Source: Candidatus Gastranaerophilales bacterium
Lineage (GTDB): Bacteria; Cyanobacteriota; Vampirovibrionia; Gastranaerophilales; UBA9579
Length of the DNA: 64,000 bases
Direction: 5' to 3'
Assembly: GCA_028689995.1 (NCBI GenBank)
Contig: JAQVCB010000005.1
Span: forward strand, 1,367-65,366
Positions 3,228 to 39,930 of the stretch are shown piece by piece. Position numbers and translations under genes: made by a program. Every line of letters starts with the position of its first letter. The stretch's first letter is position 1. The notes under the pieces were generated by a model, which made no database searches, was not told the origin of the DNA, and worked only from the letters and a program-made list of their open reading frames with translations.

Positions 3228-3352
3228 AAATCCTCCTTTGTAAACATACGAAAAGAAAATGATTTATGAAACCGTATCAAATGATACTTTTTTATGATAA
3301 ATTGCTGTTTAAAGATAATAATAAATATTTAGTACAGGTTTTTTAAAAAAAA

Positions 3353-11646: not shown

Positions 11647-11649
11647 CTT

Positions 11650-12087: not shown

Positions 12088-12299
12088 TTTTAAACTCCTT
12101 CAAAGTTTTTAATAATAATTCCAGTTGATTTTCTGTCCCTTCATTGTCAGGATAAAATTTTTGCTTCATTTTAAATTCTCCTCTTTGTAATGTGAAACTA
12201 AAATGCTAATCAATGCCCTGTATCCTTCCCAAAATTCTTCAGATGGCAGGCATGGCGTTTCTGAATAGGTCTTAATAAATTTAGCCTGCTTTTTCATTT

Positions 12300-12470
12300 T
12301 TAAACTAAATCCTCCAATAATTTAAATACTTCGCTTTTGCGAATTAGGTACCTTTTACCGATTTTTGTAGCTTTCAATAATCCTCTTTTAATGTATTCCC
12401 TAACTGTATAGGGTGTTACATATAAGATTTTCGAGGCTTCTTCTGTCGAGATAATTTCATTCAATTGCAT
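12300..12470 (-). CDS. excisionase-type HTH DNA-binding protein (56 aa)
   Basis: Not in the supplied track (<60 aa). MQLNEIISTEEASKILYVTPYTVREYIKRGLLKATKIGKRYLIRKSEV fits the excisionase/MerR-like HTH_17 pattern. It heads a minus-strand operon. Confidence 0.6.
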   Translation of the reverse strand: MQLNEIISTEEASKILYVTPYTVREYIKRGLLKATKIGKRYLIRKSEVFKLLEDLV

Positions 12471-12531
12471 AAGTTTTCATCCTTATTAATCTAATATACG
12501 ATTTTCATATATTGTTATATCATTTTTTGTA

Positions 12532-12560
12532 TTGACATGCAAGTGATAATCATATATGAT
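12532..12560 (+). promoter_or_regulatory. sigma70-like promoter with overlapping palindromic operator
   Basis: TTGACA (12532-12537), 17 nt, TATGAT (12555-12560). A perfect 12-nt palindrome ATCATATATGAT (12549-12560) overlaps the -10. GGAGA at 12586-12590 favours the ATG at 12598 as the real start. Confidence 0.45.
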
Positions 12561-12591
12561 TATATGAAAATATGATAAGTTATATGGAGAC

Positions 12592-12975
12592 ATGAAAATG
12601 TTTAATCTTGGAGAAAAACTGAAACAAGCTAGAGAAGAAGCAGGACTTGAACAAAAAACAGTTGCTTCAGCTCTTAACCTTGACCAAGGCAAAATAAGCC
12701 TTATAGAAAAAAATGCAAGAAAAGTTGATGCAGAAAAAGAACTTCCTAAATTTGCAAAACTATTTAATAAACCAATAAGCTGGTTTTATGAGGACTTACA
12801 AGAAGTTCCTAAAGAACAATCATCTGTCGATAGTTTTTTAAATACTTACTTTAATGAATATAAATTTAATGATATTCAAAAGAAAAAAATTGAAAAAATC
12901 CTTCAAAAATCATTAAACATTTACCTTGAAGATATTTTAGATGATGAAGATGAAAGGGAGGCTAAACATGGATAA
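12592..12975 (+). CDS. XRE-family HTH regulator
   Basis: LGEKLKQAREEAGLEQKTVASALNLDQGKISLIEKN is an HTH_3 pattern. Divergent from the excisionase-type gene. Confidence 0.7.
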   Translation: MKMFNLGEKLKQAREEAGLEQKTVASALNLDQGKISLIEKNARKVDAEKELPKFAKLFNKPISWFYEDLQEVPKEQSSVDSFLNTYFNEYKFNDIQKKKIEKILQKSLNIYLEDILDDEDEREAKHG

Positions 12976-13603
12976 AAAACCTGAACAACCCAAGTTATTT
13001 GAATTAAAGCAAGAAAATAAGATTTTAACAGAAGAAGAAATTAAAAATTCAGCCGATAAAAAAACAGGTCAATTGAAATTTATATCTCCAGAATTAGAAC
13101 TTAAAGCAATGATTAGAGAAGAAATGGAACCTGTTATAGAGGCAAATAAATTACTTTCTGAAAAAAGTGATCGATTGTTAGGTGCTTTTGAAAAAGCAAT
13201 TCCACATTTTCAAAATAAAATGATGGGCAATGAAGATGAAGCCTATTTAGCTTATGCAGATAATCCCGAACAAGCAGATGTTGTAAGAGTAAGTTCTGAT
13301 AAAATTCCAGCTGATGCAGTTTATACAATGATTTCTGCTGAATTAGCTTCGGCTTTTGGTTGTAAATCTTGTTATGTTTCTTACTTATTAAAAGATTTGA
13401 ATTTATGGAATGACAATAAATATACAAAAGATGAAAAAATATCTGTAAATAACAAAATTAAAAAATTTAGACCTGCTATTTTAAATGAAGTTTATAAACA
13501 ACTGCCTGATTTATTAAATTCCAATAAATTTCATTTATTTACTGAAAATAGAAAAAATATTTATATAAAAATTTATGAAACTATGAAATTTTACAGAAGC
13601 TAA
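12941..13603 (+). CDS. hypothetical protein
   Basis: 220-aa ORF. The likely true start is MDKKPEQ at 12968. No motif recognised. Confidence 0.4.
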   Translation: MMKMKGRLNMDKKPEQPKLFELKQENKILTEEEIKNSADKKTGQLKFISPELELKAMIREEMEPVIEANKLLSEKSDRLLGAFEKAIPHFQNKMMGNEDEAYLAYADNPEQADVVRVSSDKIPADAVYTMISAELASAFGCKSCYVSYLLKDLNLWNDNKYTKDEKISVNNKIKKFRPAILNEVYKQLPDLLNSNKFHLFTENRKNIYIKIYETMKFYRS

Positions 13604-13620
13604 CTATAAAGGGTTAAACT

Positions 13621-15379
<1,759 letters not shown>

Positions 15380-19636: not shown

Positions 19637-19841
19637 TTTTTACCTTCCACGCATGTTAAATAAAATGGCATAGCCATCTTTATATATAAAAACAATAACT
19701 GGGTAAAAATTGCTAAAAATATTTGAAATTATCTAGTAAAGAGATTTTGATTTCTCTAATTCAATTAATTCATTCAATTTATCAATTTCAGTTTTTTGAT
19801 TTTTAGGTTTTAATACCATCTTTAGCCTCTATTTAAAAGAC

Positions 19842-20369
19842 TTAAATCTCCAAAATCTCTTTAACTTGAGCAAGAAGTTCTTTGTAGGGTTTACCATTAC
19901 AGTAGTTAAAAGTTTCTTGTAATTCAGCACTTAAATCCTGTTGCCAACCATTTCTTACCGGTAGTTTGGATTTCTTCTTATCAGCTTTGTCAGATTCTGG
20001 AAGCTTGTAATCAAAGCAATCTCTTTTATTCCTGAGTGTTGTAAGTTTAACGCCTAATTTATCTGCAATTTCTCTAAGTGCAGGGGTTTGACGTGGTATA
20101 TCTGAAATAGCAAAATGTTCATAACGAGCCAAGAAGTAAGCAACTTTGTTTACTTCTTTTTTATTAGTTACTAGGTTTCTACTTGCATAAATCTTCTTTT
20201 TACCAGCTTTTTGAGATAAAATATCTTCTTCCAAGCTTTCGTAGGCTTTTAAAGCTCTATTTGCTCGAACTGCCAAATCTGAAAGAGGAACAAATACATC
20301 TTCACCATTTATGTGCTTTTTCATTATCTCCTGTACGCATTCATTTAATTCTATAAGTTTTTTCTTCAT
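19842..20369 (-). CDS. hypothetical protein
   Basis: 175-aa ORF. No motif recognised. Confidence 0.4.
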   Translation of the reverse strand: MKKKLIELNECVQEIMKKHINGEDVFVPLSDLAVRANRALKAYESLEEDILSQKAGKKKIYASRNLVTNKKEVNKVAYFLARYEHFAISDIPRQTPALREIADKLGVKLTTLRNKRDCFDYKLPESDKADKKKSKLPVRNGWQQDLSAELQETFNYCNGKPYKELLAQVKEILEI

Positions 20370-25209: not shown

Positions 25210-25395
25210 ATGCAAACTTTACTTGATGTAACGCAACTGGCACAAATGCTAAAAATTGAGGTATCAACAATCTATGATTGGGTACATAAAAAGAAAATCA
25301 AGTACATCAAGATTGGCAGGCTTTTAAGATTCAGGCAGGAAGATATTGAAGCACTTATTCAAAGTAATACTTACGAAAAAGAGTATGTAAGGTAA
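25210..25395 (+). CDS. excisionase / AlpA-type HTH protein
   Basis: 61 aa. LAQMLKIEVSTIYDWVHKKKIKYIKIGRLLRF. Its stop is 2 nt before the integrase start. Confidence 0.7.
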   Translation: MQTLLDVTQLAQMLKIEVSTIYDWVHKKKIKYIKIGRLLRFRQEDIEALIQSNTYEKEYVR

Positions 25396-25397
25396 AT

Positions 25398-26486
25398 ATG
25401 GCAAAAGTTAAGAAAAGAGTTTGGATAAATAAAGACGGCTCAAAAGGACAAACTTGGACTGTTGATTTTATTGACAATCGAGGTAAACGAGCTATGAAAT
25501 CAGGTTTCAAGACCAAAGCAGAAGCTGAAAATTATCTTGCAAAGCTAAGATTGGAACTTGAAAAGGGAACATGTATAAATTCAAACAAAAATCTAACTTT
25601 TCACTTATTAGGTGAAGAATTTATCAAGAACTATGCGGAAATTTATTGCAAAACCTCAACCCTCATCGGGTATAAGAGTTATTTAAAAAATCACTTATAC
25701 CCGTTTTTTTCGCATAAAAAGATTCTGGATATTACTCCAAACTTTATAAGCAAATACATACAATTAAAGAAAGATGAGGGATTTTCAAACAAAACAATCA
25801 ATCACACACTGATTTTACTTGGAGGTATATTTAAAAGAGCTATGGAACAGGGATATATAACGAGAAATCCTGCATACAGCGTTAAAAAATTGAAGCTAGA
25901 ACACCTTGAGATGGGCTTTTTATATAGTAAAGAAATAAAAATTCTGTTAGAAAGCACTAAAGAAAAAGATCCTGATTTTTACCCTATACTACTTACCGCA
26001 ATTTCAACAGGATTAAGAAGAGGTGAGCTTATAGCACTTAACTGGAGTGATATTAATTTTAAAGAGTGCAAAATATCAGTCAGTAAAAGTATTTTCAGAG
26101 GACAAATTCAGGAACCTAAGACAAAGACCTCTATTAGAAAAGTTAATATGCCTCGAATTCTTATCGATGTTTTAAAAGAGCTTAAGGAAAAATCCAAAAG
26201 CGAGATCATTTTTACAAATAAAGAAGGTAACCATTTAGATCCCGATAATATGGTTAAAAGACACTTTTTGCCAAATTTAAAATCGGCAGGAATTAACAAA
26301 CAAATAAGATTTCACGATTTAAGACATACTTTTGCAAGCGCACTAATAGCTCAAAATGTTCCAATCAAGTATATACAGGCGCAAATGGGGCATAGCTCTA
26401 TTCAGGTTACATTAGATCGTTACGGTCATTTAATGCCAGAAGTTCATTTGCAAGGAATTGATGCAATGGAAAAGATTTTAGAATGA
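25398..26486 (+). CDS. tyrosine integrase (phage-integrase family)
   Basis: GLRRGEL (Arg), HDLRHTF (HxxR), GHSSIQVTLDRYGHL (His..Tyr). Confidence 0.9.
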   Translation: MAKVKKRVWINKDGSKGQTWTVDFIDNRGKRAMKSGFKTKAEAENYLAKLRLELEKGTCINSNKNLTFHLLGEEFIKNYAEIYCKTSTLIGYKSYLKNHLYPFFSHKKILDITPNFISKYIQLKKDEGFSNKTINHTLILLGGIFKRAMEQGYITRNPAYSVKKLKLEHLEMGFLYSKEIKILLESTKEKDPDFYPILLTAISTGLRRGELIALNWSDINFKECKISVSKSIFRGQIQEPKTKTSIRKVNMPRILIDVLKELKEKSKSEIIFTNKEGNHLDPDNMVKRHFLPNLKSAGINKQIRFHDLRHTFASALIAQNVPIKYIQAQMGHSSIQVTLDRYGHLMPEVHLQGIDAMEKILE

Positions 26487-26704
26487 ATTATTTTGATAAC
26501 GCAAGATTCTTTCTCTTTGAAAGATTTTATTATGAACATAATCACGATCTTAAAAAGTTAAAAAAATTTAATAACAGGCTAATAAGCGATAGAATTTATA
26601 ATTATGACGGCACACTTTTAAGGAAGTGTGTTTTAAAGTATTTGATCGATAAACCGAATTTAAAAATAATTGAGGTTGATGATAATGGTAAAAATGAAAT
26701 TTAA
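26483..26704 (+). CDS. hypothetical protein
   Basis: 73-aa ORF overlapping the int stop by 4 nt. Confidence 0.35.
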   Translation: MNYFDNARFFLFERFYYEHNHDLKKLKKFNNRLISDRIYNYDGTLLRKCVLKYLIDKPNLKIIEVDDNGKNEI

Positions 26705-27786
26705 TGATCCCAAATATGTCATATGACTGTGATAAAATTAGTTATATCAGCATAAAGGAGTTTCTTATGAAACAAAATGATAGTTTAAGATATTCAAGAA
26801 TGAGCGATATAATCCAGATAGTAATCAAAATGCAAGGAACTAGAGAAGGATTGACTTTAACGGATATTGCAAAAGAATTAAATGCCACAAGAAGAACAGC
26901 AGAACGCGTTAAAAATGCTATACTCTGCAATTTCCCACAAATTGACGAGCTTGAAATAGACGGCAGGTTTAAAAGATGGGGATTTACAAACTGGCATGGG
27001 CGAAATGAATTTATTAGTGGAATTATTGGTTTTTTGCCCGAAGAAATATTAGAACTTGAAAAACTCAAGAAACAGGCTATTAGAAATGGGCAGGAACAGA
27101 ATGCTAAAATTTTAAAGGAAATTATCGATAAAATTAACGCTCTTATGAGAGATTCAAGAGATAATTCCTATGATGCTGAAGAAAACATCAAAACACTTTT
27201 AGAACTTGAAGGATATGCAATTAGTCAATTCTCAAAAGAAAAGCTTGATTTTAATACCTTAAATACTATAAGGAAAAGCTTAAAAACCAATAAAATGTTG
27301 AGTTTTAAATATACAAAACGAAACGGTGAAAATACCGTTAGAAAAGTGGCACCTTATGGTCTTTTGTATAATTTAAAAAGTTATTTAATTGCTAAGGATG
27401 GCATAGTAAAGCTTTTTGACCTTAGCAACATGGAAGATATTACACTTGAGGGAGAGAGTTTTCAGCCAGATAAAGACTTTAATCTGGAAAACTTTGCAAG
27501 CAGGTCTTTTGGAATTTATCAGGAAGAACCTATGCAAATAAAGCTTTTATTTGATAAAGAAGCTAGTAAAGATGCTAAAAACTATTATTTTCACCCTACG
27601 CAAATAGTTAAAGAGAATCAGTACGGTACCGTTCAAGTAGAATTTTATGCAGGCGGAACAAAAGCTATGTGTTGGGAATTTTTTAAATGGGGTGAACATA
27701 TAAAAATACTTGAACCTCTTAGCTTGAGATATCTCTATCTGGAAGAATTACAAAAGATACTTAATAATAGCCAAAAAACAGGTTAA
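26704..27786 (+). CDS. WYL-domain transcriptional regulator (HTH-WYL-WCX)
   Basis: wHTH LTLTDIAKELNATRRTAER and WYL-type segment VAPYGLLYNLKSYLIAKDG. The probable real start is ATG 26767, preceded by AAGGAG. Confidence 0.7.
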   Translation: MIPNMSYDCDKISYISIKEFLMKQNDSLRYSRMSDIIQIVIKMQGTREGLTLTDIAKELNATRRTAERVKNAILCNFPQIDELEIDGRFKRWGFTNWHGRNEFISGIIGFLPEEILELEKLKKQAIRNGQEQNAKILKEIIDKINALMRDSRDNSYDAEENIKTLLELEGYAISQFSKEKLDFNTLNTIRKSLKTNKMLSFKYTKRNGENTVRKVAPYGLLYNLKSYLIAKDGIVKLFDLSNMEDITLEGESFQPDKDFNLENFASRSFGIYQEEPMQIKLLFDKEASKDAKNYYFHPTQIVKENQYGTVQVEFYAGGTKAMCWEFFKWGEHIKILEPLSLRYLYLEELQKILNNSQKTG

Positions 27787-27893
27787 ACTGTCGGAAAATC
27801 CAGCCCTTATTATAGGAAAGGCAAAATTTTGACCCCTAAAGGGTATATAGAGAAGCATCTCGCCTCGTCAAATGACCTCCTCGTCGATATTTA
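27783..27893 (+). repeat. conserved non-coding tail of WYL gene, copy 1
   Basis: Repeated at 32085-32194. The inner 73 nt (27821-27893) are 72/73 identical to 32122-32194. Confidence 0.85.
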
Positions 27894-27947
27894 GATCATT
27901 AAAAGAAGAATACAAAAACGCAATCGAAAAAATGTATAAGAAAGTTA

Positions 27948-28742
27948 GTGAGTAAAAAAGAAAGGCAGAAAATTATGGAAGCAAAATTTAAGCAAAATAT
28001 TAGAATATTAAACGATAATAAAGAAGAAAAAGAAGAGGCAAAATTTATTGTTGAAAAATATTCATTAATTGATCTAATAGGTAAGGTAAAATCACAAGAT
28101 GAAATCGATAAAAAACGTAAAAATCAAACTATATCTTATTATTTTGAAGATATTAAAACCCCTTTGCTACCCGGAGAACAATGGCTACCATATTGGAGCT
28201 CAGAAAATAAAAATACTTCAGGATGGATAGAAAAGTACAAAGAAGTTAAATCTATTGATGCAAGCAATTTAGGAAGAGTTCGCTTTTTTAATTTAGAAAA
28301 TGAAAAACAAATAAAACCACAAATAGAGTATTACACCCAAAGGAAAGGGTATTTGTGCTTAGAAGGTAAATATACACAATTACCAAATGATTTAGTATAT
28401 CAAATAATTGCAAATGTTTGGCTTGAAGAATACCAAGAATCAAAGCCAGATGGTCTAAACAGAAGAGATGAAGACAAGTGTCCTTGGGCTGTTCACCATA
28501 TTTCAAATGATGGCTATGATAATAGACCAGAAAACCTAATTTGGCTTAAATGGTGTGATCATGCATGTGTCCATCCATTCATGATTAATTTCAACATTCC
28601 TTCCGTGTGCAGAAAGTGTTCAGTGAGTCAAGAGCTTAAACATATTTTAGGAAAATATAAAAGTGAAAAAAATATTCGTACTATTAATGATTTACCAGAT
28701 TGGAGCATTTTTTTAATAGACGAAAATAATTTTCGTGCATAA
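27948..28742 (+). CDS. HNH endonuclease with NUMOD4-like N-domain
   Basis: GEQWLPYW...ASNLGRVRF (NUMOD4-like) and VHHISNDGYDNRPENLIWL (HNH). An alternative ATG start lies at 27975. Confidence 0.75.
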   Translation: MSKKERQKIMEAKFKQNIRILNDNKEEKEEAKFIVEKYSLIDLIGKVKSQDEIDKKRKNQTISYYFEDIKTPLLPGEQWLPYWSSENKNTSGWIEKYKEVKSIDASNLGRVRFFNLENEKQIKPQIEYYTQRKGYLCLEGKYTQLPNDLVYQIIANVWLEEYQESKPDGLNRRDEDKCPWAVHHISNDGYDNRPENLIWLKWCDHACVHPFMINFNIPSVCRKCSVSQELKHILGKYKSEKNIRTINDLPDWSIFLIDENNFRA

Positions 28743-29154
28743 TTTTCCCTTACATATAAGAAATGGTGCTGATAGAAAGAAAAGGATTCTTGTCGTTGAT
28801 GATTCCGCTAATTGGATAAAAACGCATACCTTTGCTCTAAAATACCATTTTGGGGAAAAGGTTAAGATTGATTGTGCAAATTCTGCAAAACAGGGGTATC
28901 AGTGCATAACCAACAAACTCTTAGAACCCTATGACATAATAATTGTTGATATGGAGATGGAGGATGATTTTACTCCCCTAAATGCAGGTGAGTGGTTAAT
29001 TAAGCAAATTCAAGTGTTTAAGGAATATGATTGCGCAAGAATTTTTATTGTGTCTTCAATTGCTGAGATAAACGAAATTGCCAAAAAATACGGTGTGAGT
29101 TGCCTTCCAAAAGATAAATGCGAAAACATTATGGAATATAAGGTTTTTGAGTAA
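28735..29154 (+). CDS. stand-alone response-regulator receiver (REC) domain protein
   Basis: ILVVDDS, IIIVDMEM (acceptor Asp), FIVSS, LPKD. No output domain. 8-nt overlap with the HNH gene. Confidence 0.7.
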   Translation: MHNFPLHIRNGADRKKRILVVDDSANWIKTHTFALKYHFGEKVKIDCANSAKQGYQCITNKLLEPYDIIIVDMEMEDDFTPLNAGEWLIKQIQVFKEYDCARIFIVSSIAEINEIAKKYGVSCLPKDKCENIMEYKVFE

Positions 29155-29911
29155 TCTTTTTAAAAAAGCACTTAAAAAAAGGAAGTATAAAAACATGAAT
29201 TTCAAGAAAAATACTACAGTAGAACACGAACAGATAACCCAGCAAGAAATAAATGATACCCTTCAAGAGGTTCTTAAATATTGCGGTCTGAAAATTAAGG
29301 GAGTGGATGACAAAGGTGAATTTTTTGTCGATATAAATTTGGGATTCGATTATTTATCATTTTCTCTCGATAAAGATAGACAATTTAGTTCTCGTAGCAG
29401 TGGAAGATATTCTCCAATTATCAGCCAATTAACTCCAACTCCTGCTCTTTTGTTTATTGCGGAGAAAATTCTTGATAAAGACAGATACAAAAAAATTACA
29501 CCAAGAACATCTGCAGGAAAAATTTTATCTCTTATCAAAGAAAAGATTTGGGACTTTATTATAGACGATAATTGGTATAATGACTTGCTAATCTCTGGAA
29601 TTTATTATCCTTCAGGTGATATAAAAATAGCTACCGAAATAGAAAACAGCTATGATACCCTGAAATATTACTCTGCATCCCAGGATGGAAGTGGTAATTT
29701 TTCGAATTGTTGGAATTTTGACGGTACCGATTATCCAAAAGGAACATTTGATAGTGTTTTAACTTTAGCGAAAGAACTTCGCAAAAAAGAAACTAAATGG
29801 CAAAAATTTATTAACAGAATCTTTCATTATAGCTCCTATAAGTTTTCACATCACGACTGTTTGTTGTTGCTGGATGAAATTAATAGCATTAAACGGATTG
29901 TTGAAAAATGA
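29147..29911 (+). CDS. hypothetical protein
   Basis: 254-aa ORF with an 8-nt overlap upstream and a 4-nt overlap downstream. No motif recognised. Confidence 0.45.
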   Translation: MSNLFKKALKKRKYKNMNFKKNTTVEHEQITQQEINDTLQEVLKYCGLKIKGVDDKGEFFVDINLGFDYLSFSLDKDRQFSSRSSGRYSPIISQLTPTPALLFIAEKILDKDRYKKITPRTSAGKILSLIKEKIWDFIIDDNWYNDLLISGIYYPSGDIKIATEIENSYDTLKYYSASQDGSGNFSNCWNFDGTDYPKGTFDSVLTLAKELRKKETKWQKFINRIFHYSSYKFSHHDCLLLLDEINSIKRIVEK

Positions 29912-30663
29912 AAAAAAGCTTGGATGTTTGGCAAGTAGAAGATTTTAGCGAAATAGGTTTGGCAAAAATTATAACTACTGATGATAAGCATTATTGGGTT
30001 GACACATCAGGAAAAGTTGTGTCCGAACAGGCAGCACATGTTCTGATTGCTGGAAATTACGAGAAATATGCTTTAGTTAATAAAGCAGGGGAAATTGTAG
30101 TGCCTTATGGTGTATATAATAACTTGGATTTTTCTATTATGGAAAACCAGTATGGAACAGCTTTTGTGGTAGAAAAAGAAGGTTCTATAGGATTAATAGA
30201 CGACAAGGGAAAAGAAATTGTACAGTTTGGTTATTATGATCATATTATTCAATCTTGCTACATAGGTTTACATGAAGGGTATATTTTGCCTTATGAATTT
30301 GGTAAAAACACGTATTTTGTAGCAAAAGATGGTTTTGGAAGATTAATTAATGATAAAGGTGAAAGAATTTATGATAAACGATGTCATACCGCAGAAGAGT
30401 TGTTGATGCAATTTGCAGTACCTGCAACTTATATCCCCTATCTAACCCCAAAGCGTGATGATGGGATGTACGGCTATGTTAACCAACAAAATGAACTAAT
30501 TATTCCTTATAAATTCATGTACGCCCGTGAATTTGAAAATGGTTTTGCAAAGGTCTCGGATTCCAAAAATATTGAAGATATTGACGAGTGCAAATGGTAT
30601 CATATCGATGAAACAGGCAAAAAACTTCATTATACAATTGAATATAATGAAACAGAGAAATAG
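29908..30663 (+). CDS. WG-containing-repeat (KWG-type) protein
   Basis: Recurring units such as YALVNKAGEIVVPYGVY, GLIDDKGKEIVQFGYY, RLINDKGERIYD, YGYVNQQNELIIPYKF. Confidence 0.65.
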   Translation: MKKSLDVWQVEDFSEIGLAKIITTDDKHYWVDTSGKVVSEQAAHVLIAGNYEKYALVNKAGEIVVPYGVYNNLDFSIMENQYGTAFVVEKEGSIGLIDDKGKEIVQFGYYDHIIQSCYIGLHEGYILPYEFGKNTYFVAKDGFGRLINDKGERIYDKRCHTAEELLMQFAVPATYIPYLTPKRDDGMYGYVNQQNELIIPYKFMYAREFENGFAKVSDSKNIEDIDECKWYHIDETGKKLHYTIEYNETEK

Positions 30664-30670
30664 AGTGAAA

Positions 30671-30982
30671 ATGAACAAAAACATTTTTATTTTAGGGATA
30701 ATATTTTTAATTTGCATCGTCATTCTTGTATTTATGAAAATTTTAAGCAGATATGAAAGTGAATCTGAAATCTCCGAAACTTCTATAAAGATTCCTCAAA
30801 ATTTGCCTAAAGATGTCGTTAATTTGGAAGAATATTTTAAACCTCCCTCTGATGAAGAAAGAATTATACAAAGCGGTTATTCCTTTGTTTATTCAAAATC
30901 TCAAAACAGGTGGCGTGAATATAAACCAAATACTATTTTATCTCCTGATGACATATTAGTTAGCAAAGGTTATTTCAAATAG
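30671..30982 (+). CDS. membrane-anchored small protein
   Basis: Start chosen at ATG 30671 inside track ORF 30527..30982. The N-terminus MNKNIFILGIIFLICIVILVF is a signal anchor, and the longer ORF overlaps the upstream gene. Confidence 0.45.
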   Translation: MNKNIFILGIIFLICIVILVFMKILSRYESESEISETSIKIPQNLPKDVVNLEEYFKPPSDEERIIQSGYSFVYSKSQNRWREYKPNTILSPDDILVSKGYFK

Positions 30983-31095
30983 GTAGATTCTTATTCAGAT
31001 ATTATTTAATTGGTGAAGGTTTAAGAATAGCCACAAAAGTTATAAAATCAGAGTTGGAGAATGAAGAATAACCTAGCTGATCGATGAATATTTTC

Positions 31096-31833
31096 TTAAA
31101 TTAATGTTTTAATTATTTCAGAAGTTATTGGCTTATTACAGATTTTAGAATATTCGATAATTTTGTCTAATATAGCTTTTAATCTTCTAGTATCGCTGTT
31201 TTCAAGCTCATAAAACAAATCAACATTTTCTTTTAGTGAATTTAATGTTGTTAAATCTTTGGTTAAACTTATTATTTGATTTTGAATAAAATTTTGAATA
31301 AATATTTTACTATTAATGGACTTTATTTCACAAACCAAACCACTTTCAAGGCGACTTATAAGTCTTTTAGTAAGGGTAGGAATGTTTTGGGGACGTCTGT
31401 CACTTGTTAAAATAATCTGTTTTCCTAAATCATAAAGGGTATTGATAGTATGAAAAAGCTCTTCCTGCGTAATTTCCTTTCCTTCGATAAACTGAATATC
31501 ATCGAGTAAAAGAACATCAATCTGGCGATAGCTCATTCTAAAAGCGTTCATTTTATCGTTTCTGATTGAATTAATCAGGTCATTCGTAAATATTTCTACA
31601 GTAGAATATAATACTTTTACTTCAGGGCTATTGTGTTTTATATAGTTACAAATTGCCTTTAATAAATGGGTTTTTCCTGTGCTTATATCTCCATAAATAA
31701 GTAATGGATTATTATTCTCTCTTGGATTTTTAGCTACTTCTTGAGCCATTAAATAACAAAATTCATTATTTTCATCTTTAATAAAATTCTCAAATGTATA
31801 ATTTTGATAAGAATTCATAGTAAATTTCTCCAT
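31096..31833 (-). CDS. DnaA domain III-only AAA+ ATPase (Hda-like architecture)
   Basis: NYTFENF, Walker A GDISTGKTHLL, Walker B LLLDDIQF and ILTSDRRP are colinear with DnaA domain III. At 245 aa it has no domains I-II and no DNA-binding domain IV. Confidence 0.8.
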   Translation of the reverse strand: MEKFTMNSYQNYTFENFIKDENNEFCYLMAQEVAKNPRENNNPLLIYGDISTGKTHLLKAICNYIKHNSPEVKVLYSTVEIFTNDLINSIRNDKMNAFRMSYRQIDVLLLDDIQFIEGKEITQEELFHTINTLYDLGKQIILTSDRRPQNIPTLTKRLISRLESGLVCEIKSINSKIFIQNFIQNQIISLTKDLTTLNSLKENVDLFYELENSDTRRLKAILDKIIEYSKICNKPITSEIIKTLI

Positions 31834-31869
31834 TATTAGTTTTTAATCCCATTATCTTGTTTTCTTGCT

Positions 31870-32088
31870 CTGGTAAGAACTGATGTTATTATCTCAAAGC
31901 GATATGACAAAAACGGGCGCATTAAACACAAAGACGGTACTGTTGAAGTTGAATTTTGTGCTAGTGAAATAAAAGCTATATGTTGGGAACTTTTTGAATA
32001 TGTAAAAATCTTAGAACCTCAGAGCCTAAAAGATCTTTATAATGAGGAATTGCAAAAGATACTTGATAATAACAGAAAACTAGCTTAA
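31870..32088 (+). pseudogene. 5'-truncated second WYL-regulator gene (C-terminal ~70 codons only)
   Basis: Reads ...KDGTVEVEFCASEIKAICWELFEYVKILEPQSLKDLYNEELQKILDNNRKLA*. This is colinear with the C-terminus of 26704..27786. The left limit is approximate. Confidence 0.6.
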
Positions 32089-32194
32089 ACTGTCGCTTCT
32101 CACAGCCCTTATATAGAAAAAGCAAAATTTTGACCCCTAAAGGGTATATAGAGAAGCACCTCGCCTCGTCAAATGACCTCCTCGTCGATATTTA
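32085..32194 (+). repeat. conserved non-coding tail of WYL gene, copy 2
   Basis: See 27783-27893. Confidence 0.85.
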
Positions 32195-32314
32195 AAGATT
32201 TCCGCAAATTCGCTAAAAACTCACAGGAAATTTAAAATATGGATAAGAAATTAATTTAGATATTAGTGTTCTTATATACCCATTTATGTCATGTGACTTT
32301 GATATGCTCTTGGC

Positions 32315-33504: not shown

Positions 33505-35124
33505 ATGGATTTAAACTTTTATCTATTTAATGAAAATGTATGTGCATTTAGTAACTGTCTAAAAAAAGATAAAGACGGAAATATCATTGCTCAATTAATT
33601 AGCGATGAATCAGCTTCAGACTACCAAATATATTTCAATAGAAGTAATTCAAAAGCTCCTAAATGGTTTAAACTTATCAGTGATAAGGTAACTACAGATT
33701 CTGCTGCCCTTTGGACTCAATATAATTCAGCAGTAATACTTATAAAAGAAAATATTAACGAGAATGATGTTTATTTTGCAGTAACATTGGGTTTCGGATG
33801 TACTTTAATAGATAAAGATAAAATTGTTCCAAATTTTGGACTCAAAGTTGTATTAAACAGTGTAAAAGATAAAGGATTTAAGTCTATAGAATCAAAAGCT
33901 GTTGGAACAATGTCATTTCAAAAGCGGGAAGCTTCAAGCATGGTAACTCATATTAATGAATTTGATTTTAACAGTGCTACAGAAATTTTAAACAAGCTTG
34001 TTGGCATTCCAGAGAAGGAGGATGGCGAAGAAGAATCTTTTGCTAATAAAGTTATAGGTGGAGATAGTTGCAAAATAGTTTCAAAAGTTGAATTTGATGA
34101 TTTGAAAGTTAAGTGTCAAAAACTATATGAGATGTATAAATCACTTAAATATAAAGAAAAATATGGTTTTATTGACCATGTTAAACATATCAAGGATAAA
34201 GATTTAATTGATAAGTTAGAAGAAAATCTATATCAGTCACTTATTAATCGCCAGAATGATTTAAAAATATCAATTGCTTATCCTGATTTACTTGAAGAAG
34301 ATAGATGTTCCTATTTTGAGTTGGCAGGACATGGTGGAAAACAACTGGAATACTGCCTAACGATTGAAACAATTTATAATTACCTTAATGGAAAAGAACA
34401 AGATAAAGAAAAATATTTTAAAAAAATTAAAATTCAGCCTTATGATTCAGAAGGGACACCTTGCGCAGATAATAGAAGATTATATGACTATTTTGTATAT
34501 GAAACCCAGTTGGATAGAAATACTTATGTGCTGTCGACAGGAAAATGGTATGAAATAGATAATACTCACATACAGGAAGTAAACTCAGAAATTAGTAACT
34601 TTGTGACTATTTCTACATATCAGGAGTTAAGGCCATTTAAAAAAGAGGTTATTGCCGATAAAATCAAAATCGAAGCTGAAGAGATTTATAATTCTGATTT
34701 TGATGCTTCAAATAATTTTGTAGTTTTGGATCAAAAGCTTTACCATAATAGCAATGGAAAAATTGAAATAGCTGATTTATACTATATTCCTGATAAAAAG
34801 TTAATTCATATAAAGAAAAAGACTAACTCATCAACATTAAGCCATTTATTTTCACAAGGATATGTCTCTGCATACTTACTAAAAACTGAACAGGGCTGTA
34901 TTGACAAGTTAAATGAGTTAATAAGAGACAAATCAACTGAAATATATGATAAAAATACAATAAATGATCTAACAGTCATATATGCCATTGCTACAGAACG
35001 ATGTGAGAATAATATAATAGAGATTCTTCCTATCTTTAGTAAAATTAACCTTTTAAATTTTGCTAAAAACCTAACTAATGTGCTTGGATATAAAGTTGAA
35101 ATAACTCAAATTAACATAGGATAA
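33505..35124 (+). CDS. DUF6119 / TIGR04141-like sporadically distributed protein (assignment from memory)
   Basis: 539 aa with N-terminus MDLNFYLFNENV. C-terminal EIADLYYIPDKKLIHIKKK...LSHLFSQGYVS looks like a PD-(D/E)XK-type core. Confidence 0.4.
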   Translation: MDLNFYLFNENVCAFSNCLKKDKDGNIIAQLISDESASDYQIYFNRSNSKAPKWFKLISDKVTTDSAALWTQYNSAVILIKENINENDVYFAVTLGFGCTLIDKDKIVPNFGLKVVLNSVKDKGFKSIESKAVGTMSFQKREASSMVTHINEFDFNSATEILNKLVGIPEKEDGEEESFANKVIGGDSCKIVSKVEFDDLKVKCQKLYEMYKSLKYKEKYGFIDHVKHIKDKDLIDKLEENLYQSLINRQNDLKISIAYPDLLEEDRCSYFELAGHGGKQLEYCLTIETIYNYLNGKEQDKEKYFKKIKIQPYDSEGTPCADNRRLYDYFVYETQLDRNTYVLSTGKWYEIDNTHIQEVNSEISNFVTISTYQELRPFKKEVIADKIKIEAEEIYNSDFDASNNFVVLDQKLYHNSNGKIEIADLYYIPDKKLIHIKKKTNSSTLSHLFSQGYVSAYLLKTEQGCIDKLNELIRDKSTEIYDKNTINDLTVIYAIATERCENNIIEILPIFSKINLLNFAKNLTNVLGYKVEITQINIG

Positions 35125-35282: not shown

Positions 35283-38054
35283 TTGTTCAAAAATCAGAAT
35301 GGAATCAATATGAGTGAAGAACTCCAATCAAAATACTTAAAAAAGAATAAAGTAGTCGGACAAAAGTTTGCAGAATATGAATATTTTCAAATAGGTGCTA
35401 CTACGTTTAATCAACTCAAAAAAGCGAAACTAATTCCTAGTAATTTTGCGAAAGAGCATAGTTCTTGTAAACCTGATCGCATTATTGTTGATAGGCAAAA
35501 TCTAACAAAACCAGTTGTTATAGCCGTAATAGAAGATAAGAAAACAGGAAAATTTCAAAATAAAACAGAAAAGCTAAAAGCTATCCAGCAATGTAATAAT
35601 TACTGCCAAGAGCTTGATGCAAAAATAGGAGTTATTACTGATGGACATGAAACAATTTGGATAAATCCCCAAGAAAAAAATAAAGATAATGAATATAAAG
35701 ATGAAATTCTAAATATAAAAAGAAGTTATTCGATTATAAAAAAGGAAGATGGTACGGATATTACTTATAGTTTTATTATCACTGAAAAACAGGATTTGAT
35801 AGATCTTGAAAAAATGGGTGATGAAACTAAAAATATTTATAAATTAATTAAAGAAATTATAAATAAATTAAATAATAAAAACTCTGTTCTAAAAGAGCCT
35901 AAAAAAGTTGATCCTTTACCTTTAGCTAAAAGAGTTTGGCAAGATATATGGGTTGCAACTGGAAAATCCCCTGAAAAATGTCTTTATAATGTTGTTGAAC
36001 TTTTTATTTTTAAATTTTTAAGTGATTTAGAAGTTTTACAAGAACCAGAAAATTTTGATTATTTATTTAAATTGTATGAAACAAGAGATAACAATTTTAT
36101 TTTAAATTATTATGCACGTAATTGTCGAAATAAAATACGAAATCTATTTCCAAAAAGTAAGGAAGACGGCACAACACTTATTAATGGGACCATTTTTGTA
36201 AATGAAAACGGCGATGCCAACCTTAGTCAATCAACTTTATTTAAGAATTCCATTAAAAAGTTCAAAGATTTTGAAAAAGAGTATGGAAAATTTAATCACA
36301 TAGATAAAGATTTTAAAACAAAATTATATGAATCATTCTTAAAACAAAGCGAAGGTTTGAAATCTTTAGGACAATACTTTACCCCTCGTAAAGTAGTACA
36401 ATCAATCATTGAAATGTCAGGTATCGAAGATTTAAAACAAGGGGCAAGGTTTTGTGACCCATTTTGTGGTGTAGGTGGATTTGTTTTAGAACCTATAAAC
36501 CTTTACAGAATGAATGATTTTAAACCTAAAAATGGTAAAATCAATCCACCAATTACATACTTGGGATTTGATAAGGGCTTTGAAAAAGATGAAGAAAGAA
36601 CAATTATCCTTGCAAAAGCTAATATGCTTTTATATTTATCCGAGATTATAAGCCAAAATAGCAATATAACAGAAAAATTTGCTGAAATTTTTAATCAAGT
36701 TTTCAGGCTTTGGAAATCAAATCTTGGCACTCTTGAAAAAATATACAATAAAGAGGAAGAAAAATTTGATTTAATTATCACAAATCCTCCATATGTTACT
36801 AGTGGTTCAAGCACAATCAAAAATGAAGTTGCCAATAATTCAGATCTAAGCAACTTTTATAAAGTTAATGCTGGTGGAGTAGAAGGACTAGCTTTAGAGT
36901 GGATTATTAGAAGCTTAAAGAAAAATGGTAAAGCTTTTGTGATCATTCCAGATGGCATACTAAACCGTCTAAATGATAAGAAAATTAGAAAATTTATATT
37001 GGATGAATGTTATTTAGAAGCTATTATCTCTTTACCTTGTAAGACTTTTTTTACTACACCCAAGAAAACTTATATATTAATAATCACTAAAAAGGAAGAT
37101 GTGGAAGATAAACAAGATTTTCCTGTATTTACTTATCTTATTAGTAGTATTGGTGAAACTTTAGATGTTAATCGATTTGAAATTTCAGATAATAATTTAA
37201 TAGAGGCTGTTGATTTATTTAATCAATTTAAAGGGATTAAAAAAAGCTCAAATTTGCAAAAAGTTCTAGAAAATCAGTCAAAAAGATGTAAAATTCAACC
37301 ACTATCTAAATTTGATCCTAATGAACATTGGTCTGTTGATAGATGGTGGAATAAAGAAGAAAAAATCGAACTTGGAATTGAAGAAGAAGATAAAGAAATT
37401 AATGCTGAAGAATTTTTTGATTTAATTGATGGTGCTATTAGTGAACTTAGCAATATGTCTAGTCAGCGAAAAGAATTATTAAAGAAAAAATCGGATGCAG
37501 AATCCACAATTAATTTTAAGACTATAAGCTTAAATGACGAAAGTTATTTTAAACTTGGAATAGGCAAAAGATTATTAAAAAAAGATTTATTCAATAATCA
37601 AAATAATCCTAAAGCCAATATTCCCGCATATAGTGCAAATGTTTTCAATCCTTTTGGGTATGTTGAAAAATCAAATATACAAAATTTTAAAAATCCTTAT
37701 ATCTTATGGGGAATAGATGGAAATTTTGATTTTGTCTTTAAAGCTCGTGGTGAAATTTTTGCGTCTACAGATCATTGTGGGACAATCGAAATCATAGATA
37801 AGAATATTTATCCAGAGTATCTATTATATGCCATTTATCTTAAAAAGTACGAATATGGATTTGATAGAGGATTAAGAGCTAGTCTGGAAAATATAAAAAA
37901 GATTAATATTGATATTCCAATTACAAAGGATAATATTTTTGACCTTAAGTTGCAGAAAGAACTAATTGACAGGAATTTAAAGATAATCTCTATTCAAAAA
38001 GACATTAAAAAACTAAGTGAAGAGATTGAAAAAGTGAAAGTTAGTTTTGATTAA
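35283..38054 (+). CDS. Type IIG-like fused restriction-methylase-specificity enzyme
   Basis: N-terminal KPDRIIVD...VIEDKK (PD..ExK). Gamma-class MTase motifs QYFTPR, DPFCGVGGF, IITNPPYV. The C-terminal ~200 aa resemble an HsdS-type target-recognition domain. Confidence 0.75.
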   Translation: MFKNQNGINMSEELQSKYLKKNKVVGQKFAEYEYFQIGATTFNQLKKAKLIPSNFAKEHSSCKPDRIIVDRQNLTKPVVIAVIEDKKTGKFQNKTEKLKAIQQCNNYCQELDAKIGVITDGHETIWINPQEKNKDNEYKDEILNIKRSYSIIKKEDGTDITYSFIITEKQDLIDLEKMGDETKNIYKLIKEIINKLNNKNSVLKEPKKVDPLPLAKRVWQDIWVATGKSPEKCLYNVVELFIFKFLSDLEVLQEPENFDYLFKLYETRDNNFILNYYARNCRNKIRNLFPKSKEDGTTLINGTIFVNENGDANLSQSTLFKNSIKKFKDFEKEYGKFNHIDKDFKTKLYESFLKQSEGLKSLGQYFTPRKVVQSIIEMSGIEDLKQGARFCDPFCGVGGFVLEPINLYRMNDFKPKNGKINPPITYLGFDKGFEKDEERTIILAKANMLLYLSEIISQNSNITEKFAEIFNQVFRLWKSNLGTLEKIYNKEEEKFDLIITNPPYVTSGSSTIKNEVANNSDLSNFYKVNAGGVEGLALEWIIRSLKKNGKAFVIIPDGILNRLNDKKIRKFILDECYLEAIISLPCKTFFTTPKKTYILIITKKEDVEDKQDFPVFTYLISSIGETLDVNRFEISDNNLIEAVDLFNQFKGIKKSSNLQKVLENQSKRCKIQPLSKFDPNEHWSVDRWWNKEEKIELGIEEEDKEINAEEFFDLIDGAISELSNMSSQRKELLKKKSDAESTINFKTISLNDESYFKLGIGKRLLKKDLFNNQNNPKANIPAYSANVFNPFGYVEKSNIQNFKNPYILWGIDGNFDFVFKARGEIFASTDHCGTIEIIDKNIYPEYLLYAIYLKKYEYGFDRGLRASLENIKKINIDIPITKDNIFDLKLQKELIDRNLKIISIQKDIKKLSEEIEKVKVSFD

Positions 38055-38150: not shown

Positions 38151-38154
38151 TGAT

Positions 38155-38231
<77 letters not shown>

Positions 38232-38589: not shown

Positions 38590-39930
38590 ATGTTGAATAA
38601 AAGCTCTTCAGAATCATATTATAATAAAGGTATTATGCAGTTTGAGAAAGGTCAATATGATCTTTCTATAGAAAACTTTAAAAAAGCTATCGAAAAAAAT
38701 TCATCAAATTTTAATTATTATTATAATCTTGGACTTGTATATATAAAAAAAGAAGAATACGATTTAGCTATAGAAAATTTTAGAGAAGGATTACTATTAA
38801 ATCCTGACGAAGTTGATCTTCATCATAATATAGGCATTGCTTATTTTAACAAAAAGAAATTCAATGAAGCTATTAATGCGTATAAAAAAGCTATAAAACT
38901 TAAGCCTACGGATTCTGCAAGTTTTGACAATCTGGGAATTGTATATTTTACGCTGAATAATTTTGATGAAGCAATTTCAAATTTTAAACAAGCAGTTAAT
39001 TTAAATTCTCAAAACTCCTCTGCTAATTATAATTTGGCTTATACTTATTATATAAATGAACAGTATGATTTGGCAAAAGAATTTTTGCTTCGTACAATTT
39101 CAATAAATGAAAATGATGAAGAAGCATATTTCAATCTGGGGAATGTTTATTTAATACAAAAAGAATTTGATTCGGCAAAAGAAAATTTTAAAAAGGTCTT
39201 ATTTTTAAATCCTGATAATATGAGCGCTAAACAAGCATTAACCAAACTGAATAAAGAAAAAATAAAAAAAGAAGAAATTGAAGAAAAAACACCGATAAAA
39301 CAAGCTGAGATAAAAACAATTTTAGCGGAAAAACACAAAGACGAACTTGATCTTGATATGGAAGTTGAAGCGGAAAAAAACTATCAAGCCGGTATTGATT
39401 TTTTAAATAATAAGGAATTGGATCTGGCTGTTGTAAAACTAAAAAGTGCTGTAATTTTACAAAATGATCATTTGGAAGCTCAAAAAGCGTTCAAATATGT
39501 CACAAAATTATTGAATGAATTCAATGAATTTGTAGATAAAGGATTAACAAGTTTTGCAAGAAATAATTTTATTTCTTCAATAGATTATTTTAAGAAAGCA
39601 TTAACTCTAAAACCGAATGATAATAAAATTCAAGAATTACTTAGCAGGGTAGAAGAAAAATACAAATTAATTGAGAAAAATAAAAAAATTTATAAATTAT
39701 ATATCGAGAATGGTAAATATGATTTAGCGGTTGCTACAATTAAAAAGACTATTTCTGAAAATCCTCTTGATTCTGATGCACATTTTGAATTAGGGAATGT
39801 ATATGAAAAACAAAAAAAGTATAACCTGGCTATAGAAAGTCTACAAAAAGCCTTAGCTATTGATTCGGAACGCAAAGATATAAAATATGTTTTATTTAAG
39901 TTAAAGCAAAAAATTAATCCGGAATATTAA
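38590..39930 (+). CDS. TPR-repeat protein
   Basis: Many 34-aa units of the form YYNLGLVY..KEEYDLAIENF..L.LNP. Confidence 0.8.
   Translation: MLNKSSSESYYNKGIMQFEKGQYDLSIENFKKAIEKNSSNFNYYYNLGLVYIKKEEYDLAIENFREGLLLNPDEVDLHHNIGIAYFNKKKFNEAINAYKKAIKLKPTDSASFDNLGIVYFTLNNFDEAISNFKQAVNLNSQNSSANYNLAYTYYINEQYDLAKEFLLRTISINENDEEAYFNLGNVYLIQKEFDSAKENFKKVLFLNPDNMSAKQALTKLNKEKIKKEEIEEKTPIKQAEIKTILAEKHKDELDLDMEVEAEKNYQAGIDFLNNKELDLAVVKLKSAVILQNDHLEAQKAFKYVTKLLNEFNEFVDKGLTSFARNNFISSIDYFKKALTLKPNDNKIQELLSRVEEKYKLIEKNKKIYKLYIENGKYDLAVATIKKTISENPLDSDAHFELGNVYEKQKKYNLAIESLQKALAIDSERKDIKYVLFKLKQKINPEY

Follow-up and report, generated by a model that had tools for sequence, protein, structure and literature searches.

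A probable mosaic copy of a conserved WYL-headed accessory operon in a tRNA-Met island of Candidatus Gastranaerophilales

The 3' end of a gene encoding a WYL domain-containing transcription regulator is present twice in a 64,000-nucleotide (nt) stretch of contig JAQVCB010000005.1 (hereafter the window, to which all coordinates refer unless a related locus is named), the proteins of which are identical to annotated proteins of a metagenome-assembled genome (MAG) of Candidatus Gastranaerophilales, a non-photosynthetic lineage of Cyanobacteria. The two copies bracket a cassette that encodes an HNH nuclease-like protein, a single-domain receiver, a 238-amino acid (aa) protein, a WG-repeat protein, the remnant of a membrane protein and, on the opposite strand, a DnaA/Hda-like ATPase. 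The explanation that we modestly favor is that the bracketed DNA represents a mosaic version of a conserved, WYL-headed accessory operon carried in the cargo arm of a genomic island at a tRNA-Met gene, that the duplicated WYL end is the scar of a module replacement, and that the operon works by the mechanism proposed below. Taken separately, the scar and the mosaic origin are very likely, and we are equally confident that a conserved WYL-linked operon exists; a role of this operon against mobile elements or in defense, predicted from sequence, is plausible, if tentative.

The intact regulator gene (26704-27786, plus strand; 360 aa), which encodes a winged helix-turn-helix (wHTH) domain followed by WYL and WCX domains and is translationally coupled to an upstream xis-int-orf73 row, ends in a segment that recurs downstream as a direct repeat of three collinear blocks (27623-27688 and 31934-31999, 82% identity; 27693-27793 and 31995-32095, 76%; 27811-27893 and 32112-32194, 96%). 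Self-BLAST merges these blocks into a single alignment (27623-27893 and 31934-32194; 81% identity over 274 nt, E = 4e-53), and exactly two occurrences of a 27-mer taken from the non-coding core were found in the window, compared to zero expected from 100 shuffles. The coding part of copy 1 (27619-27786, plus strand) comprises the last ~56 codons of the WYL gene, which encode WCX domain sequence, and is 72% identical to copy 2 (31927-32088, plus strand), a pseudogene remnant that repeats WYL residues 305-360 and whose in-frame translation ends in ...KDGTVEVEFCASEIKAICWELFEYVKILEPQSLKDLYNEELQKILDNNRKLA followed by a stop. As an earlier note on this DNA had proposed, copy 2 is a 5'-truncated gene end, given the in-frame stop codon upstream and the lack of a start codon.

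Both copies continue into a non-coding tail. The repeated non-coding part is 107 nt long and contains a conserved core of 83-93 nt (27801-27893 in copy 1; 32103-32194 in copy 2, delimited by the repeat and a three-way comparison; both on the plus strand). In the three-way comparison of copy 1, copy 2 and L001, a related metagenomic locus, the coding parts are 72-86% identical (L001 matches copy 1 at 78%, and copy 2 at 86% of nt and 80% of aa positions), and 83 nt of the core are 93-96% identical (96% between the two window copies, with exact shared stretches of 35-36 nt), indicating that the core evolves several-fold slower than the adjoining gene. Thus, the earlier note recognized the repeat, its diverged coding part and its near-identical tail correctly but overestimated its extent: the second copy starts at ~31927 rather than 31870, and includes ~56 rather than ~70 codons and 107 rather than 111 nt of non-coding DNA. 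Outside the window, the tail core was found only in L001-type elements (the metagenomic loci L001-L003, L006 and L007, which share the island backbone with the window at 84-94% nt identity); no further occurrence was detected in the window or in IMG/VR.

The two sides of the cassette are unequally distant from L001. On the right, copy 2 is 86%, its tail 94% and the downstream genes 92-94% identical to L001; on the left, the corresponding values are 78% for copy 1 and for the complete WYL gene (72% at the protein level), 89% for the first tail and 80% for the gene of the 238-aa protein. Read from left to right, the WYL gene, tail and leader (26692-27979) are L001-like (78%); the HNH and receiver genes (27936-28184 and 28488-29166) are L015- and L011-like (67-85%); the gene for the 238-aa protein, with DNA homology to L001 confined to 29178-29889, is again L001-like (80%); and the WG gene with the start of the membrane protein gene (29905-30969) is L012-like (~82%). 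There follow orphan DNA that matches no related locus (30970-31091), the inverted DnaA-like gene, which resembles L029 (31092-31834, 81%), a second orphan stretch without a relative (31835-31929), the truncated WYL end with its tail (31930-32194, L001-like, 89%) and, from 32275, the TRL gene onward (L001-like, 92-94%). The junctions at 30970, 31092, 31834 and 31927 are located in unique DNA. Together with the unequal distances to L001, this favors an illegitimate join of related modules over a crossover within the repeat; a deletion between tandem or co-resident elements would be one example of such a join.

These comparisons show that a first lineage supplied the left backbone, WYL copy 1, its tail and the cassette, and was joined illegitimately to a second, L001-like lineage that starts inside WYL codon ~305 and supplied the second tail, an empty cargo slot, and the TRL, GNAT and DUF6119 genes. 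They further show that the operon in the window gained the gene for the 238-aa protein, lost most of the membrane protein gene and abuts the unrelated DnaA/Hda-like module. The proposal that a module was swapped by recombination between related elements is therefore borne out, with the right part 86-94% and the left part 78-80% identical to L001. The slot between the WYL-tail unit and TRL holds two genes in the L001-type relatives (one for a 193-aa HNH-like protein and a homolog of the 238-aa protein gene), six in the window and none behind copy 2, in agreement with the suggestion that the WYL gene is followed by a cargo hotspot. Behind copy 2, a diverged copy of the relic and leader described below, identified by alignment to the relic, occupies 32195-32274 (plus strand) and leads into the empty slot; position 32275 corresponds to L001 position 9796, so that L001 homology resumes directly after the stop codon of the second slot gene of L001.

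The same arrangement could, in principle, result from insertion of a circular DNA (leader, HNH, receiver, 238-aa protein, WG, truncated membrane protein gene, inverted DnaA-like gene, truncated WYL end and tail) at the tail of a resident WYL gene with an empty slot, by a Campbell-type or site-specific event, the repeats being attL and attR and the tail serving as the site of recombination, possibly by the tyrosine integrase that is encoded two genes upstream. The exact matches within the tail cores, the sharp drop of identity among all lineages at one common right-hand tail boundary (...GATATTTA), the one-sided 5' truncation of the target end, a classic mark of integration into the 3' end of a gene, the empty slot behind copy 2, and the xis-int pair upstream of the WYL gene (25210-26486, with the integrase at 25398-26486) would all fit such an event. 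However, no recombinase is encoded between 27894 and 31927; copy 2 groups with the right-hand DNA and not with the cassette; the tail occurs nowhere else in the sequences searched; and the WYL-HNH unit that holds it is conserved without an integrase in L011, L012 and L025, so the tail does not behave as an element boundary. The orphan DNA and the inverted DnaA-like module between the truncated membrane protein gene and the truncated WYL end also suggest illegitimate joins, and we consider the circular insertion unlikely.

Several other roles for the tail were examined and discarded. As an RNA, it has no Rfam match (E <= 1) and folds with z-scores of -0.88 and -0.38, in a set of three near-identical sequences that carry no covariation power; as a terminator, it has a sole hairpin that is not kept in copy 2 or L001; and as a sigma-70 promoter, it offers no promoter-like site on the plus strand. 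An attachment site of the island is not a fitting role either, given that the true repeats of the island are tRNA-Met 3' ends and the tail lies within the conserved WYL-HNH unit. The tail is also not a small open reading frame (ORF): the frame is 27 codons long in copy 1, 20 in copy 2 and 8 in L001, and its 3' part is a relic of a WYL C-terminus.

This relic (SLKEEYKNAIEKMYKKVSE followed by a stop; 27897-27956, plus strand), located directly upstream of the ribosome-binding site of the HNH gene, represents an older WYL 3' end. Its translation aligns with the C-terminal 19 residues of WYL from L011 (16/19 identical, E = 1e-8), and an 89-column DNA alignment with the 3' end of the L011 WYL gene and the adjacent ribosome-binding site shows 81% identity; in L011 itself, there is no tail, and the WYL stop codon is 17 nt ahead of the HNH start. 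The relic is also present in L001 (MYKKVSE), in a diverged version after the second tail in the window and, as shorter traces, upstream of the HNH genes of L012, L015 and L025; the leader AGAAAGGnnnAAATTATGG is kept in all relic-bearing loci, the window, L001, L012, L015 and L025 among them. The position of the relic between the tail and the HNH gene indicates that the WYL gene together with its 3' flank was replaced at least twice in the ancestry of the locus, with the old end left behind each time. Combined with the mosaic structure, the nested WYL-end relics point to repeated exchange of both the regulator and the cargo at WYL gene ends.

Within the operon, the position of the HNH gene is hypervariable, with gene-precise boundaries. 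Between L012, L015 and L025, DNA identity of ~90% extends across the WYL gene and into the first part of the intergenic region, vanishes over the HNH gene and resumes at the receiver start; accordingly, the WYL proteins of these loci are 97% and the HNH proteins 31-46% identical. The gene for the 238-aa protein and the DnaA-like gene (81% identity to L029, confined to 31092-31834) likewise constitute exchange units of one gene each, judging from the extent of their DNA homology. A search for attC-type imperfect inverted repeats or shared repeats at the gene-module boundaries yielded none, the only shared feature being the ribosome-binding site leader before the HNH gene. A further scar was observed in L025, where a 113-nt fragment of the receiver gene (19766-19878; 85% identity to L012 8106-8218) is located 9.8 kb downstream from the complete operon.

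By tracing receiver homologs (67-76% identical) to their contigs, we found the gene order WYL, HNH-like, receiver, WG in three further neighborhoods, namely, L011, L012-L016 and L025-L028; in the latter two, a membrane protein of 236-237 aa is encoded in the fifth position. The BLASTP identities to the window proteins are 32-37% for WYL, 39-49% for HNH, 67-76% for the receiver, 64-73% for WG (L011, L012, L015 and L025) and, within the shared segment, 69-73% for the membrane protein. The operon adjoins a murG-ftsW-murD-mraY-murF cluster in L011; in L012-L016, it is located between a type I restriction-modification (R-M) system and genes for HD, DUF4238, UvrD-PDDEXK and McrB proteins; in L025-L028, the right flank is the same and, on the left, the operon is divergent from a type I-C CRISPR-Cas system. 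Flanking genes match the PADLOC models for DUF4238-Pers, GajB (or a GajB-like helicase-nuclease) and an Mrr-like nuclease. Thus, known defense genes are neighbors in L012-L016 and L025-L028, and a DUF6119 gene and a gene for a type IIG-like methylase are the neighbors in the window, L011 being the exception.

The expectation that the five-gene set would be kept as a block elsewhere holds for the WYL-HNH-receiver-WG-membrane protein row; the gene for the 238-aa protein, absent from the operons of all three neighborhoods, is an extra insert from another WYL-linked set. Its homologs are found downstream of the WYL-HNH pair in the L001-type elements (L001-L003); in L004 and L005, directly upstream of the WYL gene and ahead of four HNH-like paralogs in tandem and a gene for a WG-FtsZ fusion; in L008, beside an HNH-like gene; and, as a version that consists of the C-terminal domain only, ahead of the WYL gene in L010. 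The DnaA-like gene, which the earlier note had listed as a convergent gene of the cassette, is not present in the conserved operons either and is a separate, gene-precise module: in L029 (2129-4036), the gene directly after a WYL-WCX gene in the same orientation encodes a DnaA domain III-only protein (75% identical to that of 31096-31833) and has a PDDEXK_4 gene as a neighbor, suggesting that WYL regulators of this lineage head several types of cargo.

A GTDB scan with the WG profile recovered only 25-29% identical proteins of Bacteroidota, without WYL, HNH or receiver neighbors, and the profile made from ten relatives of the 238-aa protein was too divergent for a locus scan. In PADLOC-DB v2.0, the HNH, receiver, 238-aa, WG and membrane proteins have no match in either the window or L012, and only a generic WYL model is hit, which agrees with the view of the earlier note that the cassette is not a described system; in the literature searched, no paper joins WYL to NUMOD4/HNH, WG repeats or Melainabacteria.

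The plus-strand genes of the cassette are tightly packed, with overlaps of 8, 8 and 4 nt and then a gap of 7 nt when the starts of the ORF list are used. The 8-nt overlap of the receiver gene with the third gene is the part of this picture that probably changes: the most likely start of the gene for the 238-aa protein, given the NCBI call and the start of its homologs, is the ATG at 29195 and not the TTG at 29147, so that 40 nt separate it from the receiver gene. The HNH_3/NUMOD4-like nuclease (27975-28742, plus strand; alternative GTG start at 27948) reaches 19.7 bits with Pfam HNH_3, below the cut-off of 24.8, and HNH_3 is weak in 6/6 family members; NUMOD4 is weak in 3/6 and undetected in the window protein. 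The family motifs SN.GRV and VHHI.N.GYDN..NLI are kept, and V173, H174, H175, I176, N178, Y181, N183, N187, L188 and I189 are invariant in six members; homologs are encoded downstream of WYL genes in L001, L004 (four copies), L011, L012, L015 and L025. The domain calls of the earlier note stand, some of them weakly: that of WYL, here joined by WCX, exceeds the Pfam cut-off, those of WG_beta_rep and Bac_DnaA are strong, those of HNH_3 and Response_reg fall below the cut-offs, and NUMOD4 is seen in family members but not in the window protein.

The single-domain, CheY-like receiver (28735-29154, plus strand; Response_reg 21.9 bits, cut-off 30.2) has D22, D23, D72, S107/S108 and K126 aligned with CheY D12, D13, D57, T87 and K109, residues that are kept in seven homologs; its homologs in L011, L012-L016 and L025-L028 occupy the same operon position. 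No HisKA/HATPase_c kinase was detected among the ~30 window ORFs scanned or in the L011-L016 and L025-L028 operons, so the earlier description of a receiver without a cognate kinase extends to the related operons. The 238-aa protein (29195-29911, plus strand), encoded by an insert the size of one gene that separates the receiver gene from the WG gene, is rare, with three close homologs in 5.8e9 proteins and nine profile matches in 1.84e9 representatives, and has no Pfam, PADLOC or NCBIfam family. Its AlphaFold models reached a predicted local distance difference test score of 39 (3-sequence run) and 69.5 (10-sequence run), and the structural check proposed in the earlier note, a Foldseek search of PDB and BFVD, returned nothing at E < 0.09. 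The C-terminal ~105 residues, with the motif D..(W)Y....DGSG....CW....YP..TF..V...A, also exist as stand-alone proteins of 116-151 aa (P0006-P0009 and P0011) and constitute an uncharacterized domain without a structural match.

The WG-repeat protein (29908-30663, plus strand) matches PF14903 (WG_beta_rep; E = 1.2e-10); PDB profile searches with the WG and HNH families gave no match. The membrane protein gene (30671-30982, plus strand; 103 aa compared to 236-237 aa in relatives), listed in the earlier note as a member of the operon, is truncated: its homology to the L012, L015 and L025 protein covers residues 37-76 of the relatives only, ending at ~30970, so that the cut falls at about residue 76 of 237. 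Beyond the orphan junction, the DnaA/Hda-like AAA+ protein (31096-31833, minus strand) consists of DnaA domain III only (Bac_DnaA, E = 6e-61) and belongs to a family of ~240-aa homologs; it scores 244 bits with TIGR00362 (cut-off 343.9; positions 103-334 of 437) and 85 bits with the Hda model TIGR03420 (cut-off 194.8).

The Pfam WYL and WCX domains of the regulator are both above the cut-offs (35.5 and 39.4 bits, respectively, versus 21.8 and 23.9). The nearest solved relative is DriD (8tp8; residues 22-351, including the helix-turn-helix region, E = 1e-38), and all five sequences that match at E <= 0.01 in the PDB sequence search are DriD; no BrxR or CapW chain reached E 0.01, so that the BrxR/CapW-type switch suggested earlier gives way to a DriD-like regulator. 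DriD is a transcription activator that is itself activated by single-stranded DNA (ssDNA) and binds a site overlapping the -35 element (PMC9186387, PMC10853764, PMC13004042), one of its targets being didA, the gene for a small membrane protein that inhibits division (PMC9186387); ssDNA is also sensed by WYL repressors of defense loci, such as CapW (PMC11662680). Among the 10 ssDNA-contact residues of DriD, four are identical in the window protein (Y168, R178, Y192 and Y240), three are replaced conservatively (R204 to K, W206 to F and R288 to K) and three are lost (R176 to T, K202 to I and R207 to D).

For BrxR, two operator boxes are known, the second of which is located downstream of the BrxR gene itself (PMC9122601). 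In L012 and L015, similar palindromes are located over TTGACA/TTGGCA hexamers, both upstream of the WYL gene and between the WYL and HNH genes, a pairing that resembles the two boxes of BrxR; the candidate WYL operators, palindromes over -35-like hexamers, are TATGTCCTTTTTTGACATAT, ACATGTCCATATTTGGCATAT and ATGTGCCACGTTTTGGCATA (L012 6230-6260 and 7288-7312; L015 7209-7235; L004 11825-11850). The only palindromes in the window tail are ACCC-N5-GGGT and CAAAATTTTG, with no second copy upstream, and a search for a second operator upstream of the window WYL gene found none.

These observations suggest a mechanism in which a DriD-like WYL dimer would sense ssDNA that arises from damage or from replication of an invading element, and would then activate a promoter in the conserved intergenic element (the tail in the window; in the L012 lineage, the palindrome over the -35-like hexamer). 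The HNH nuclease could act as the DNA-cutting effector with a strain-specific specificity, and the receiver, WG and membrane proteins might modulate or execute an arrest of growth or division. The most far-reaching version combines two proposals: that the WYL end with its 3' flank (the 93-nt tail, relic leader and ribosome-binding site) is an exchange platform for the sensor and for single-gene effectors (HNH variants, the 238-aa protein, WG and DnaA/Hda-like), and that the operon is a new ssDNA-triggered immune or checkpoint system that halts division of infected cells via the HNH nuclease, the kinase-less receiver, an FtsZ-targeting WG protein and the membrane protein. That both would hold jointly is doubtful.

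Alternatively, the operon could be a damage checkpoint rather than a defense system, that is, a DriD/DidA-like, SOS-independent, division-arresting module on accessory DNA. Apart from the likeness of the regulator to the activator of didA, a membrane protein is encoded at the operon end and the L011 operon abuts murG-ftsW-murD-mraY. Furthermore, a protein in L004 (14482-15531), encoded after the four tandem HNH-like paralogs in a WYL-headed row, combines a WG-repeat N-terminus with the N-terminal GTPase domain of FtsZ (residues ~10-190, E = 5e-26) and lacks the C-terminal half; this fusion is a possible FtsZ filament capper and hints at an interaction of the WG protein with the divisome. However, the fusion is a single case, with homology to ~107 residues of the WG protein only; the operon is strain-variable and resides in islands next to R-M, CRISPR-Cas, DUF4238, GajB-like and McrB genes; and a hypervariable nuclease would be unexpected in a housekeeping checkpoint. 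A pure checkpoint therefore appears improbable to us, bearing in mind that it overlaps with the abortive-infection type of defense and does not exclude it.

Somewhat less probable still is that the HNH_3/NUMOD4 gene encodes a free-standing homing endonuclease whose targets are the ends of WYL genes, with the other genes as passengers or prophage morons and the scars and the hypervariable HNH slot as by-products of homing and co-conversion. The HNH_3/NUMOD4 make-up is typical of phage homing endonucleases (PHROG 959), and the gene is replaced precisely between near-identical flanks and missing behind copy 2. The idea that the cassette is an ordinary prophage fragment with morons, named in the earlier note as its own refutation, draws some support from L004, L005 and L008, where part of the gene set (the 238-aa protein gene, the WYL gene and up to four HNH paralogs) directly follows a terminase gene, but these genes are absent from sequenced phages and from IMG/VR contigs: a search of 50,697 phage genomes (E 1e-5) found no homolog, and IMG/VR gave only one 29-residue match. 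Nor would passengers explain why the WYL-HNH-receiver-WG-membrane protein order is held across contexts with 37-97% WYL identity; in addition, a conserved ribosome-binding site leader precedes every HNH gene, and four tandem paralogs are unusual for homing genes. A chimeric assembly of co-existing strains, conceivable for a MAG with left and right parts unequally distant from L001, is highly improbable because the copies are only 81% identical and not collapsed, the junctions are in unique DNA outside the shared repeat, and similar scars occur in independent assemblies (the relic in L001, L006 and L007; the receiver fragment in L025).

Several observations weigh against the favored account of a mosaic, WYL-controlled accessory operon with a possible defense role. 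No family in PADLOC, Pfam or NCBIfam ties the operon proteins to defense. The association with WYL has exceptions, namely, a 27%-identical homolog of the 238-aa protein alone among housekeeping genes in L009 and a 49%-identical receiver in L023, both without a WYL neighbor. All related loci come from metagenomes of one lineage with low G+C content, which reduces the truly independent contexts to ~4-6. The window tail contains no sigma-70-like promoter or clear operator, so control of the window cassette by the WYL protein is argued by analogy; the membrane protein gene lacks two thirds of its length, so the window copy may be non-functional and is probably degraded. The sequence is from a MAG, with the junctions as assembled, and either lineage may have been the resident or the incoming one.

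The WYL locus lies within one of two islands inserted in tandem at tRNA-Met. The 3' end of the tRNA-Met gene (38155-38231, minus strand; repeat unit 38153-38199) is repeated exactly over 47 nt at 15333-15379, which covers the 3' 45 nt of the gene, and with 93% identity over 55 nt at 2575-2629, delimiting a distal island (~2630-15332) and the 22.8-kb proximal island (~15380-38152) that holds the WYL locus. An ORF for a large serine recombinase (13621-15378) extends with its 3' end into the middle repeat. To the left of the WYL gene and cassette, the proximal island encodes a REase-ARP nuclease, D5-type primase, ArdC, xis, the tyrosine integrase and a small ORF; to the right, TRL, GNAT, the DUF6119/TIGR04141 protein (33505-35124, no PADLOC match) and the type IIG-like methylase, a 923-aa N6-methylase/Eco57I-like protein (35283-38054). 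The small ORF between int and WYL (26483-26704, compared to L001 6643-7164) encodes 73 aa here and 173 aa in the relatives, with 61% identity over the first 64 aa; the ~340 nt missing just upstream of the window WYL gene constitute another rearrangement at the left end of the module.

Additional cargo of the defense type is present in both islands: a type III R-M pair in the distal one (methylase, 3353-5362; ResIII helicase, 5362-7986), and the DUF6119/TIGR04141 and N6-methylase/Eco57I-like genes in the proximal one. The chromosomal part of the window contains two paralogous TPR-repeat genes (38605-39000 and 55035-55431) with a 400-nt stretch of 73% identity. In the L001-type relatives, the island arm ends (L001 16923-19785) in a gene for a different, 1089-aa methylase on the opposite strand and not in the tRNA-Met junction of the window, and this end also carries a Tn7-like set of a Mu-type transposase, a TniB-like ATPase and a tyrosine recombinase.

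WYL regulators are known switches of defense and damage responses, and the genes under their control are only partly cataloged; the recurrent operon of a nuclease, a receiver, a WG protein and a membrane protein is a candidate system that is not listed in current defense catalogs. It originates from an uncultured cyanobacterial branch that has received little study and has gut lineages among its members. Accessory loci headed by WYL regulators are familiar, as are cargo hotspots; the gene combination, the pairing of a kinase-less receiver with a WG protein, and the nested WYL-end relics with gene-precise shuffling have no description in the catalogs and literature searched. The nested regulator-end relics and the gene-precise replacement of the nuclease provide an unusually clear view of how sensors and effectors are shuffled at fixed boundaries. 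If the operon is eventually shown to act in immunity or as a checkpoint, this would imply kinase-independent use of a receiver and possibly a link between WG repeats and FtsZ; should it be inactive, the locus is still a well-resolved case of island mosaicism. The intact operon of the L012/L025 type is the better experimental target, compared to the probably degraded copy in the window.

Among known systems, DriD of Caulobacter crescentus is the closest to the window regulator, sharing the wHTH-WYL-WCX architecture, being the best solved match, and having seven of its ten ssDNA-contact residues kept or conservatively replaced, the other three being lost. The driD gene is chromosomal, and its product controls didA, recA and driD itself, whereas the window WYL gene is the first gene of a mobile nuclease operon that varies between strains; no 20-bp palindrome was seen in the window tail, and the window protein may act as either an activator or a repressor. 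BrxR and CapW share with the window locus the placement of a WYL regulator just upstream of accessory genes in defense islands. However, they are repressors of BREX, CBASS and other islands and have no sequence match to the window WYL protein at E <= 0.01; moreover, the genes downstream of the latter match no recognized system, and the R-M and CRISPR-Cas genes of the relatives lie divergently on the other side.

The HNH_3/NUMOD4 phage homing endonucleases, a group of I-HmuI-like proteins, have in common with the cassette nuclease the SN.GRV and VHHI.N..YDN..NLI motifs and the behavior of presence, absence and replacement. In contrast to them, the HNH gene discussed here always comes first behind the WYL gene, with its leader, and is followed by the receiver, WG and membrane protein genes; it is not found in sequenced phages, and it scores below the Pfam cut-offs. 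The DnaA-like protein has the same AAA+ domain III as Hda and other domain III-only proteins, with a similar length of ~240 aa and no domain I or IV, but falls below both equivalog cut-offs, is island-borne and is encoded outside the conserved operon. Finally, integrative elements and satellites are known for cargo hotspots, such as the defense hotspots of the P4/P2 type, and the locus likewise combines conserved flanks (backbone identity of 84-94%) with variable cargo of zero, two or six genes. It differs in that the regulator itself is exchanged, leaving nested 3' relics, and in that genes are exchanged one at a time, the breakpoints coinciding with start and stop codons.

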